From positions 1-53,960 of the IMG/VR virus record IMGVR_UViG_3300032214_001699: a DNA stretch of 53,960 bases, one strand, 5' to 3'. Under the pieces are notes generated by a model. That model saw only the letters and a program-made list of their open reading frames with translations. It had not been told where the DNA came from and searched no databases. Every line of letters begins with the position of its first letter. Position 1 is the stretch's first letter. This document shows positions 11,212-13,895 of the stretch, one piece after another. Source of the DNA: a virus (Duplodnaviria; Caudoviricetes). Position numbers and translations under genes: made by a program.

Positions 11212-12048
11212 TCACTCCAGATCGTCAAAAGGTGTTTCTTCAGAATCCAAGCCTTCGTGACTACTTGACATGGATGATACTGGACCATCTCCAGACAGAT
11301 ATCTCTCTCTGCAAGCCTCTTCAAGCAGTTCCATTTTAACTGGATCTTGCAAATAATCTAGTATGGCTTGCTTGCCGTTAAACTTTTCATTTCCATAGGC
11401 ATAGGTTTTGTTATTAGGTCTATCAACCAGTCCCATTAGGATGGCGAGGTTTAGGACTTCTTCATTCTTATTAATTATGCCCTTTGTGTATTTAACGGTG
11501 TAGATCGCTTCTCGGTAGGGCGCTCCGACTTTATTTTTCTGAATTTTTGCCTTAACCTTGTGTCCGACGATTTCTTCATTTTCATCTTCGACGCGATTGT
11601 CGGCGCCATTCATTGGTGCCATATTGATCATCACGCTACAAGCGTGCTTTAGAGCTTTTCCACCTGGCGAAGTATTGTGATTCAGGAATCCGTTTGCATA
11701 ATAATTGTGAGTCTTGTCTATAGTGAAATCAACAACAAACATCTTTTCATCAAGTCTCTTTGCTTCAGGATGCTCATCCGCTCTAATAAACTTAGAGGCT
11801 TCATCACTATACACTAGGTGTCCCGCTGTTGCCTTTAGGCTTCCGATCTGATAATAAAAATAAACTGGCTCTTTTACGATTAAGTTTTGTATCAACGAGT
11901 ATACTTTTTCTCCGGTTTCAAAATCGAAGCTTTCAATCTCTATGCCGCTGGATGAGACATCGAATATTCCCGGTTTTGAAAAATCAAAGTTACCTGCAAT
12001 TCTATCAAAGAGCTCATTTACGCTAACTTCCTGTTCAACAAAATTCAT
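11212..12048 (-). CDS. recA: RecA C-terminal half fused to split-intein C-fragment (IntC)
   Basis: First 125 aa are intein-like (block B KATAGH; blocks F/G VVDFTIDKTHNYYANGFLNHN). Then TSPGGKALKHACS...GHKVKAKIQKNKVGAPYRE, the RecA segment after loop L2. Confidence 0.92.
   Translation of the reverse strand: MNFVEQEVSVNELFDRIAGNFDFSKPGIFDVSSSGIEIESFDFETGEKVYSLIQNLIVKEPVYFYYQIGSLKATAGHLVYSDEASKFIRADEHPEAKRLDEKMFVVDFTIDKTHNYYANGFLNHNTSPGGKALKHACSVMINMAPMNGADNRVEDENEEIVGHKVKAKIQKNKVGAPYREAIYTVKYTKGIINKNEEVLNLAILMGLVDRPNNKTYAYGNEKFNGKQAILDYLQDPVKMELLEEACRERYLSGDGPVSSMSSSHEGLDSEETPFDDLE
11674..12048 (-). mobile_element. Split intein C-fragment (125 aa), +1 residue Thr
   Basis: Own Met start, TxxH block B, terminal HN followed by T. 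Confidence 0.9.
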
Positions 12049-13099
12049 TTTGCGCTCCTATTGCTTTTTTAATTATACTGCGAAGCTCATCTCTGCTTTG
12101 ATGAATATCTTGTTCCCAAATTACAATAATATTATATCCGAGTGACTTTAGATTATTGATTCTTTTTTGGTCCTTTTCCCAGATATCTTTTGCTAAAACA
12201 TTTGACATTACAACGTGGTCAGGTGAAAATAATCTGGGGTCTGCGTGCCAAAATGTACCATAGCACTCTATTATTATTTTTTTTAACTCTATTTTAAAAT
12301 CAGGATAATAAGCATTATAATCAAATCTTGTTTCGTGCTCATAGACCCAATCCTCAGATAGCTCCGTTAGAATGCTTCCGACTATAAACTCATTTAAATT
12401 CATTTTGTAGCCGTTTAGACTAAATTTCTTTTTGTATCTCAGGCTTTTAATTCTACTCTCTCTTTCCTCTGGAGGTAGGTTTCTCCATCTCTCTTTTGAC
12501 TTTAAGGAGATTTTCATCAACCTCGCTGGATTATTTACCGCCGCTATGAAATTATCCTTCACTTCTTTTTTATTCATTGTCTCTAGAAAAGACTTAATCC
12601 TCTTTTCTTTTGACTCATTGGAATGCAAAACTGACACGACTTTTTCTTTGTATTCCGCATTCTCAAATCTTTTTTTTGCAGCAGCTTTAATTTTTTCAGT
12701 CGCACCAGCCCTTGATCTGGCTAAATTTTGTTTATATGATTCTTTTTCTACAGCTAAGTTATAATTTTCTCTTTCTTTTTGCTTTATCTTTTTTAAATAC
12801 TCGTTACAAAAATCAAGATCTTCTTTTTTTGGGTTACAATTTCCCACCCAAAAAGAAACGCAATATTCTATATTGAAATATTTTTTTCTAAAACTATAAA
12901 GTTTTTTTGCAATCTCTTCATCTTTAAAATAATAATGAAAATATTTTTCAGATGAAGATGATATTGGAATTCTCTTTCCATTTTCAGATATAAAGAATGG
13001 TTTCTCTTTTTTTAAGAATTCTTTTTTTAAACTTATTTTAAAACAAGGTTTATCTTTTAATATTGAAAATGAAAAATCAAAGTACTCAGATTCTAACAT
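12035..13099 (-). CDS. Free-standing Vsr-like/DUF559 homing endonuclease inside the fractured recA
   Basis: C-terminal YPDFKIELKKIIIECYGTFWH...KDQKRINNLKSLGYNIIVIWEQDI (Vsr-like PD/FWH/IWE motifs); Lys/Arg-rich helical repeats upstream; very AT-rich; sits between the two recA halves. Confidence 0.85.
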   Translation of the reverse strand: MLESEYFDFSFSILKDKPCFKISLKKEFLKKEKPFFISENGKRIPISSSSEKYFHYYFKDEEIAKKLYSFRKKYFNIEYCVSFWVGNCNPKKEDLDFCNEYLKKIKQKERENYNLAVEKESYKQNLARSRAGATEKIKAAAKKRFENAEYKEKVVSVLHSNESKEKRIKSFLETMNKKEVKDNFIAAVNNPARLMKISLKSKERWRNLPPEERESRIKSLRYKKKFSLNGYKMNLNEFIVGSILTELSEDWVYEHETRFDYNAYYPDFKIELKKIIIECYGTFWHADPRLFSPDHVVMSNVLAKDIWEKDQKRINNLKSLGYNIIVIWEQDIHQSRDELRSIIKKAIGAQNEFC

Positions 13100-13104
13100 C
13101 TCGA

Positions 13105-13150
13105 CCCCCCATACTCTACGTTTTTATTAGCACATAGAGTATGGGAGGGG
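13105..13150 (-). promoter_or_regulatory. Hairpin sequestering the RBS of the endonuclease gene
   Basis: 11-bp stem CCCATACTCTA/TAGAGTATGGG (13135-13145 / 13108-13118). The 3' arm runs into GGGGGG, ending 5 nt before the ATG at 13099; the loop contains CTAATAAAAA. Confidence 0.7.
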
Positions 13151-13154
13151 GAAA

Positions 13155-13895
13155 TTAAACCGCGTATCTAATCTTCACTCTTGTTGAGTATGGGTCTACG
13201 CACTCCGGATTCCCATAAAGAACGCCGGGATCCACCCTCAACTGGTTGATAAAAATAAGCGCAACGTTGGCTTCCGCCACAGCAGGCGTAAGCTTTTTTA
13301 GCTCTGTAGATAAAAACCGTGGCATTGGCGCCATATTTTGCTTTCCAACGGATGCATCTGCTTCCATTGGCGTATTCATTGCGGCAACAGAATCAACAAC
13401 TATAACTCCAAGATTTTTGAATCTTGGATCCTCACCCTCTTTAACTAGATCCAAAACGCCTTTAACACTTTTGGTTGTTTTTCCAGTAGCCTTATTTGTA
13501 GTTGTTTTTCCAATCAGTCCTTCGAATATTTTCTTTGCATCATTTGTTTTTGCAACGATTATTCTTGATGTATCTAGACCAAGAGATTTTGCCCAAGAAG
13601 CATCATATGTAAATTCCGCATCAATAAACATGGCCGTATTTGATGGATGCTCATCAAGCCAACTCTTCATACATAGGAGAGACAAGAGCGTTTTTCCGGA
13701 GGATTCCTTTCCTGCCAGTTGGATAATTCTACCTCTCGGCATTCCGCCAACGCCCAATGCATAATCAAGTGATGCACTACCGCTGCGAATTACATCATAA
13801 GTTCCGACGGTATCAATGTCGCCATCCAGATAAAGACAGTCATCACCAAATAGGGATAGAAGTTCCTTTTCCCCTTCAGAAGCTTTTTTACTCAT
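13155..13895 (-). CDS. recA: RecA N-terminal half ending in a 15-aa split-intein N-fragment
   Basis: SGSASLDYALGVGGMPRGRI, Walker A GKESSGKT, FIDAE, Walker B IVVDSVAAM, IFINQLR..GVLYGNPE, then CVDPYSTRVKIRYAV-stop. Confidence 0.95.
   Translation of the reverse strand: MSKKASEGEKELLSLFGDDCLYLDGDIDTVGTYDVIRSGSASLDYALGVGGMPRGRIIQLAGKESSGKTLLSLLCMKSWLDEHPSNTAMFIDAEFTYDASWAKSLGLDTSRIIVAKTNDAKKIFEGLIGKTTTNKATGKTTKSVKGVLDLVKEGEDPRFKNLGVIVVDSVAAMNTPMEADASVGKQNMAPMPRFLSTELKKLTPAVAEANVALIFINQLRVDPGVLYGNPECVDPYSTRVKIRYAV
13158..13202 (-). mobile_element. Split intein N-fragment (15 aa, CVDPYSTRVKIRYAV)
   Basis: Block A-like C-V-x-x-x-x-T-x-V pattern starting exactly where RecA homology stops (GNPE|C). 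Confidence 0.85.

Follow-up and report, generated by a model that had tools for sequence, protein, structure and literature searches.

Genes of phage origin that are fractured at an intein were described by Dassa et al. (2009; PMC2677866). The locus considered here, a recA gene in two parts, lies on the minus strand of IMG/VR virus record IMGVR_UViG_3300032214_001699 (Duplodnaviria; Caudoviricetes), the 53,960 nucleotides (nt) of which were analysed as a whole and are called the window below. It resembles the genes of Dassa et al. in its phage origin, in a host gene of DNA metabolism and in its arrangement on one strand, i.e., the 5' part of the host gene ending in an N-terminal intein fragment (IntN), a spacer with a hairpin, a Vsr-like endonuclease gene and an overlapping open reading frame (ORF) for the C-terminal intein fragment (IntC) and the remainder of the host protein. 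In the earlier collection, hairpins thought to hide the ribosome-binding site were present in 15 of 16 endonuclease leaders, overlaps between endonuclease and downstream ORFs were 6–69 base pairs (bp) and spacers were 27–51 nt, as opposed to 55 nt in the window. All of those inteins but one, in a terminase, were broken at the canonical site with an IntN of 88–105 amino acids (aa), whereas the IntN in the window has 15 aa. RecA and UvsX were not among the eight fractured host types of that paper, where UvsX appeared only as a neighbouring gene.

Shorter IntN are known from natural inteins broken after strand beta-2 (the S1 site), such as VidaL, which is Cys-dependent and has an IntN of 16 aa; the 15-aa IntN of PolB16 OarG (Ser1/Ser+1) was called 'the shortest characterized' (PMC13014065, PMC10189870). 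As in VidaL and PolB16, the short IntN in the window is limited to the first motif and blocks B, F and G are in a long IntC, a division that suits the use of a synthetic IntN peptide. From the match in IntN length with these two inteins, the break in the window may lie directly after strand beta-2. The sequence family is nevertheless a different one, in that a profile of the window intein (described below) found PolB16 at an expectation value (E) of 3.4 and no chain named VidaL. Moreover, in contrast with the Ser1/Ser+1 of PolB16, the window intein is predicted from its sequence to use Cys1 and Thr+1 within a RecA host. The AceL and GOS TerL inteins, with IntN of 25 and 37 aa, respectively, are broken at the S2 site after helix alpha-1 (PMC13014065); they share with the window a short natural IntN, phage origin and value for semisynthesis but differ in a break one structural element later, a terminase host and a longer IntN. 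A search of the open literature returned no paper describing a split intein in RecA or UvsX, although papers on atypical split inteins or their supplements may list relatives. Atypical split inteins named VidaL UvsX (UvsX-1 and UvsX-2), which may be related to that of the window, are reportedly listed by the groups of Mootz and Pietrokovski.

Inteins, among them that of Mycobacterium leprae recA, enter RecA at its DNA-binding loop L2 (PMC3239194), and the entry point in the window is in the same loop. The mycobacterial RecA inteins (M. leprae; M. tuberculosis, PMC8529194) are contiguous and chromosomal in bacteria whereas that of the window is split and in a phage. The prototype of the EDxHD homing endonucleases, I-Bth0305I, is encoded by a group I intron that interrupts the recA of a Bacillus phage within its L2 codons, and structure 3R3P was named by Taylor et al. 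(2011; PMC3239194) in the paper on its catalytic domain. By profile (3r3p, E 3.2e-4), the endonuclease in the window belongs to the same family and is associated with the same region of the same host gene, but its carrier is a split intein rather than an RNA intron, and endonucleases of inteins and of the intron position fell into separate groups when 39 catalytic domains were placed on a tree. The site of the M. leprae RecA intein is a few residues upstream of that in the window, and the M. tuberculosis RecA intein carries a LAGLIDADG endonuclease domain.

The results obtained with the window make it very probable that the locus is the fractured recA of a large uncultivated phage, in which a class-1 mini-intein in L2 was split by an endonuclease cassette and RecA would be restored by splicing. 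The ORFs of the locus (Table 1) follow each other head to tail in the order ORF1, ORF2 and ORF3 and each is, from its coordinates, in a different frame; thus, read-through could not join them. ORF1 corresponds to the N-terminal two thirds of RecA (Pfam RecA, E 4.9e-39, from profile position 13) and ends in ...GVLYGNPE followed by CVDPYSTRVKIRYAV and a stop. ORF3 begins with 125 residues closing in ...NYYANGFLNHN, after which TSPGGKALKH... opens the remaining, C-terminal third of the protein (Pfam RecA over profile positions 196–261, E 2.9e-9). In a pairwise alignment, Escherichia coli RecA 203–337 corresponded to ORF3 residues 121–260, the C-extein aligned from E. coli residue 208, and T126 of ORF3 stood over the first T of E. 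coli GNPE-TTTGG. Since NHN-TSPGG was thereby placed over NPE-TTTGG, the exteins meet exactly where Glu is followed by the first Thr in the L2 motif. These ORFs, Pfam matches and alignment bear out a first-pass annotation of the window in which recA was described as two genes, one ending in GNPE and the other resuming at TSPGG in L2. Both parts were more similar to bacterial-type RecA than to T4 UvsX. Thus, RecA-N matched RecA chains in the PDB at E of about 3e-29 and UvsX 9gbg at E 1.7e-7, and RecA-C matched RecA chains at E of about 1e-10 to 7e-16 and UvsX at E 0.0028; the PHROGs class for these parts is 'UvsX-like recombinase'.

Table 1. Coordinates of features at the fractured recA locus (positions in the window)
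Feature	Position	Strand	Size or extent	Basis
ORF1, RecA-N and IntN	13895..13155	minus	246 aa	
RecA N-extein (Walker A, ATPase core, to ...GVLYGNPE in loop L2)	13203..13895	minus	residues 1–231	Pfam RecA, PDB chains, L004 colinearity
IntN (predicted), CVDPYSTRVKIRYAV and TAA stop; motif N1/block A with Cys1	13155..13202	minus	15 codons plus stop	conservation, L004 alignment
RNA hairpin (predicted) in 55-nt spacer	13105..13148	minus	17-bp stem	folding versus shuffles
ORF2, free-standing endonuclease gene	13099..12035	minus	354 aa	
Homing endonuclease gene	12035..13099	minus	354 aa	PHROG 22677 (E 4.6e-15), invariant residues, Vsr profile
Vsr-like (EDxHD-type) catalytic domain	12415..12065	minus	about residues 229–345	profile
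Overlap of endonuclease 3' end and IntC ORF start	12035..12048	minus	14 nt	coordinates
ORF3, IntC and RecA-C	12048..11212	minus	278 aa	
IntC (predicted), Cys-free; block B T74-x-x-H77, block F D107 and H114, block G H124-N125	11674..12048	minus	125 aa	family alignments, profile search
RecA C-extein (Thr+1, TSPGGKALKH... to C-terminus) and stop	11212..11673	minus		Pfam RecA, E. coli RecA alignment

The full catalytic set of a class-1 intein was noted at the locus, i.e., Cys1, the TxxH of block B, the Asp and His of block F, the C-terminal HN and Thr+1. These residues are divided between two separate ORFs, only motif N1 being in the 15 aa of IntN and all remaining motifs in the 125 aa of IntC. 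Cys1 stands directly after GNPE, as expected of a position-1 nucleophile next to the N-extein. Among nine split relatives with hosts that were 26–74% identical, C1, V2, P4, T7 and R12 of IntN were invariant (9/9). H77, D107, H124 and N125 were invariant in all 14 IntC aligned and T74 nearly so, and Thr+1 (T126) was conserved in at least 90% of these 14 relatives, a Ser+1 being present at locus L021. Cys was absent from IntC of the window and from IntC in 9 of the 14 sequences aligned. The halves also differed in net charge, IntN being neutral to basic (0 to +3) and IntC acidic (-4 to -15 overall and -5 to -9 over the first 40 residues); opposite charges of split intein halves were described by Dassa et al. 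(2009; PMC2677866). The description of the intein as atypically split, with a 15-aa IntN, Thr+1 and a Cys-free IntC, is thus supported by sequence evidence, as is the mechanism proposed in the first-pass annotation.

Relationship to solved inteins was evident from results obtained with a profile of eight uninterrupted inserts and the window IntC, which was searched against PDB sequences. The best match was the Spl DnaX mini-intein (7cfv, E 1.9e-6), with ...vvDvsvedthnYyAnGqlnHn of the profile aligned to blocks F and G of 7cfv, and lower matches (E 0.02 to 4.5) were to NrdJ-1, Pab PolC, Neq Pol, DnaB, Pho RadA, gp41-1 and PolB16. A search of the ESM Atlas by features gave HINT/intein clusters at 0.83–0.88 and unnamed viral clusters at 0.90–0.91, all of which serve as leads only; no model of this protein was found there.

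A view of the unbroken state came from locus L004, which has the gene order chaperonin, recA, zinc-finger ORF and primase in common with the window. Its recA is one ORF of 530 aa with an uninterrupted insert of 136 aa, reading ...WGNPE, then CVDPFSTKVKIRKDGNLDELLTVNELFERF...NGQLNHN, then TTPGGKALKH. ORF1 of the window aligned colinearly to residues 12–258 of the L004 precursor with 50% identity, the IntN part falling on residues 247–258, and the window IntC aligned from residue 263. These alignments indicate that the window ORFs tile an uninterrupted precursor, minus four loop residues. The split and uninterrupted states could be compared more closely in L003 and L004, the DNA of which was identical from the TVNELFERF codons onward and diverged exactly upstream of them, where split L003 has the end of an endonuclease gene and a new ATG for IntC and uninterrupted L004 has loop codons.

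The gene between the recA halves, which the first-pass annotation had called Vsr-like, was assigned in agreement with that description. Thus, the endonuclease family profile matched E. coli Vsr (1cw0, E 4.4e-6; also 1vsr and 1odg) in addition to 3r3p, and E237, D267, F268, E278, G281, W284, H285, D310, W328 and E329 were invariant in 11 homologues. Pfam matches among these 11 members, to Vsr in three and to DUF559 in four, were all weak. The N-terminal part of about 230 aa is probably DNA-binding. Folding of the spacer before this gene gave a hairpin with a minimum free energy of -35.4 kcal/mol and a z-score of -5.9 (0 of 200 shuffles as good). Its 3' arm is a GGGGGG Shine-Dalgarno run that ends 5 nt before the endonuclease ATG. 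Comparable CCUCC/GGAGG hairpins before the endonuclease start were noted at 7 of the 11 loci compared and overlaps of 8–22 nt between endonuclease and IntC ORFs at all 11, both counts including the window; for the overlaps, start coordinates were set by hand and two endonuclease starts were uncertain. On the quick tree of 39 catalytic domains, carrier labels needed 6 changes, compared with a minimum of 3 and a mean of 19 after shuffling, and the S1a rows were on long branches. This grouping by carrier argues for a long-standing pairing of endonuclease and carrier rather than recent exchange, and the idea of one endonuclease lineage hopping between the intein sites and the intron site, on the grounds that each has L2-coding DNA as its target, was not supported.

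Relatives with the same build were common in metagenomes. In a word-indexed search with ORF3 residues 1–135, nine protein clusters at E of 0.001 or less were found among 61 candidates; all nine share the IntC and RecA-C build and one is the window's own. A single-sequence scan of viral contigs gave no relatives whereas alignment-based scans gave 19 viral loci from 175 pattern matches and 45 metagenome loci from 357. When the 64 loci fetched were sorted by script, 13 were split with an endonuclease match between the halves, 16 were split without such a match (14 of these with gaps of 93–214 nt), eight were uninterrupted and five were split with the upstream part off the contig; the other 22 were unclassed due to an incomplete IntC match (14), no match (5), a cut by the contig end (1) or other causes (2). 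A profile search of 1.84 billion representatives of 50%-identity clusters gave 396 matches at E of 0.001 or less and 56 at E of 1e-30 or less. In half of these 56 strong clusters (28), the start at the IntC point falls among the first 10 residues of the protein; 22 have the whole intein internally and six are otherwise built. In two of the six (P0041 and P0055), the endonuclease ORF continues in frame into IntC and C-extein to give proteins of 628–640 aa, which either stem from faulty gene calling or represent an intermediate on the way to an intein with an internal endonuclease domain.

On a quick tree for IntC, built from 82 of 157 proteins (those with E of 1e-20 or less and a near-complete IntC match), split and uninterrupted forms were interleaved, with at least 18 changes of state, 6 of which were forced by the starred branches alone. 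The window fell in a starred group of 11 rows, of which nine were split, one was uninterrupted and one was other. From the tree and the cluster counts, the break at the IntN/IntC point is a recurrent and reversible state of this family rather than a one-off event. IntC had no match in GenBank phages by tblastn, and the GenBank phage collection therefore holds no cultured or annotated relative. RecA-N matched GenBank phages only at less than 40% identity, one such match being an intein-free UvsX-like gene of Moorella phage MTATph1.

With these comparisons, the locus belongs to a family that is common in metagenomes and of a kind already published, and is a real example of a known arrangement. 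The first-pass annotation had proposed that the same split point be sought in metagenomes, where it was indeed found many times, as in the 28 strong clusters above, and had presented the combination of a RecA host, a 15-aa IntN and a Thr nucleophile as unrecognised. That novelty was overstated, because IntN of 16 and 15 aa were already published for VidaL and PolB16, because inteins, as well as a group I intron with an EDxHD endonuclease in a phage recA, were already known to enter at L2 of RecA, because the three-gene layout is that of Dassa et al. and because the same intein family is common at the same site in public metagenomes in split as well as contiguous form.

The possibility that the three-ORF layout is an artefact of mis-assembly or frameshift was weighed against public sequence data. 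Parts of the recA stretch were present in 20 public runs from 14 studies, four of which runs were compared with it in detail. One contig of 30,027 nt from run X4, which belongs to a different study, spans positions 11000–14100 and keeps the three ORFs; it differs by 28 substitutions and by one indel of 1 nt, which lies outside the ORFs at 13907, upstream of where recA starts. Contigs of run X2 bridge both ORF junctions, and a joint skipping the middle gene was not seen in any of the four runs compared. Assembly error is thus excluded as the source of the layout, which is also present at 13 other loci. A related possibility is that a self-splicing intron mends the message, and related recombinase genes do have group I introns a few codons downstream of the intein site (L059 and L040, below). 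However, an Rfam scan of positions 10800–14300 with permissive filters (E up to 1) returned no intron model and only a chance-level FsrA match (E 0.3), and L004 has as one uninterrupted intein what is divided between IntN and IntC in the window. The first-pass annotation had named each of these explanations, artefact and splicing of RNA, as a challenge to its own reading; both are largely refuted and are considered extremely improbable.

A different explanation is that the halves do not splice, the locus being a recA in decay after invasion by the endonuclease or one whose RecA pieces merely associate via the intein halves. Several observations lean in this direction or otherwise weigh against the proposal of a split intein that restores RecA. 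Pfam Intein_splicing was below threshold on IntC (E 0.0092, 16.2 bits versus a cutoff of 35.8) and IntC alone had no match among PDB sequences by phmmer; the case for an intein rests on the relatives, and completion of the HINT fold by a 15-aa peptide is predicted from homology. Since CheckV gave a completeness of about 16% for the virus record, which must thus be one piece of a very large phage genome, an intact second recombinase could be encoded elsewhere in the genome. Truncated endonuclease remnants were noted between IntN and IntC at L023 (3759–4004, 82 aa) and L028 (1883–2044, 54 aa), where the cassette may be decaying in some lineages with the split kept. Among population variants, of which 40 of 130 rows were counted, the endonuclease gene had four synonymous and four nonsynonymous changes among the eight listed. 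Furthermore, two contigs from run X17, a poly-A metatranscriptome (11848–12033 and 12444–12795), were identical to parts of the IntC and endonuclease genes, but may be DNA carry-over, so that neither transcription nor a spliced form follows from them. Against a non-splicing locus, the catalytic residues are kept in all split relatives despite the wide range of host identity noted above, and the ORFs are intact in independent assemblies. In the same variant rows, all eight distinct changes listed for RecA-N were synonymous, none was listed in the IntN codons, and IntC with RecA-C had four synonymous and three nonsynonymous changes (I141V, Y63D and S9I). About half of the family clusters are split in the same way, which makes a dead end unlikely, and failure of the halves to splice was accordingly judged improbable.

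Under the preferred reading, splicing in trans by a split intein, a class-1 mini-intein would have occupied L2 between GNPE and TSPGG, and an endonuclease cassette would have entered the intein coding sequence in the loop just past the first motif, bringing its own ribosome-binding-site hairpin and giving, at its 3' end, a new start codon for the downstream part. Three proteins would then be translated. In the first, RecA-N would be followed by a basic IntN of 15 aa, the second would be the endonuclease and in the third RecA-C would follow an acidic IntC of 125 aa. Docking of IntN onto IntC would complete the HINT fold, after which formation of the Cys1 thioester, attack by Thr+1 and cyclisation of Asn125 would release intact RecA with a native L2 loop; RecA lacking that loop should fail to bind DNA. 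The endonuclease would have no part in splicing, and the hairpin probably keeps its translation low. Its most likely role, following the model of Dassa et al., is to cleave intein alleles that lack the endonuclease and to spread through their repair, and such cutting would explain the alternation of split and unsplit versions among close relatives.

Other features were noted near the locus. A Cpn60/GroEL-type chaperonin gene (13913..15601, minus strand, Pfam E 8.3e-57) is directly upstream of recA, and the chaperonin-recA pairing recurs in L004, L023 and L024, with the zinc-finger ORF and primase downstream in L004 as well. A scan of positions 11000–14200 for promoters and terminators gave nothing decisive. 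Elsewhere in the window, the IMP dehydrogenase gene (44033..45535, minus strand; Pfam IMPDH, E 1.8e-93) contains an uninterrupted mini-intein between GIGGG and SICKTR, ending in ...NGIVVHN (Hint_2, E 2.8e-6; Intein_splicing, E 5.6e-5). The DNA polymerase III alpha gene (19406..23200, minus strand) contains a candidate contiguous and cysteine-less mini-intein at about 20420..20860, between GYGFNR and SHAISY, that starts with Ser (SLVYSQ...), ends in ...NGILTSN before Ser+1 and gave a weak match to Pfam Intein_splicing (E 5.6e-4). If this insert is an intein, there are three on the fragment.

Further self-splicing elements were present in the relatives. A second intein site seven residues upstream in L2, with inserts running from C to HN between ...KIG and T(L/M/S)(Y/F)GDP, was occupied at L008, L016/L017, L055/L056, L064, L027 and L029/L031 and was also found split after 14–18 residues with a Vsr-like endonuclease. 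Both L2 inteins are present together in some recombinases, and P0014 has three inteins, one of them at the P-loop. A group I intron a few codons past the intein C-junction (after TTPGG) was noted at L059 (4260–4675; RF00028, 79 bits), and at L040 (4367–5437) a group I intron that scored 40.9 bits, below the gathering score of 50, has a Vsr-like endonuclease ORF inside. Two intein sites and one intron site are thus within about 15 codons of L2. At L015 (3961–4905 and an upstream ORF), the recombinase's N-terminal part is broken at the P-loop and ends in ...GLEG followed by a 13-residue tail that begins with Cys and a stop, which points to a third IntN of very small size in this gene; downstream are another two Vsr-like endonuclease ORFs, at about 9384 and 11669.

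On a broader view, which is offered tentatively and on balance leans towards doubt, these loci would represent a large family of RecA/UvsX L2 inteins, undescribed as a family in the literature searched, in which a dedicated endonuclease lineage repeatedly splits a contiguous mini-intein after a first half of 14–22 aa and is lost again, the 15-codon stretch of L2 being among the densest known nests of self-splicing elements. The general picture of inteins is unchanged by the present locus, the value of which is that of a resource and a clean example. Split inteins with a short first half that can be synthesized are sought for labelling and semisynthesis, and the few natural ones named in the papers cited above are VidaL, PolB16 and AceL/GOS TerL. 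The locus is a further candidate, its IntN being 15 aa long, its IntC free of Cys and its +1 residue Thr, and its relatives add dozens with IntN of 14–22 aa; if the broader view is true, many Cys-free IntC with Thr+1 would become new orthogonal tools for peptide-based semisynthesis. With regard to evolution, the relatives allow an intein to be compared directly before and after its breakage by an endonuclease cassette at a non-canonical point, one that was used repeatedly, and the L2 intein family, if it is as proposed, would give a natural series of split and unsplit partners of near-identical sequence (L003 and L004, for example) in which to study how inteins become split.

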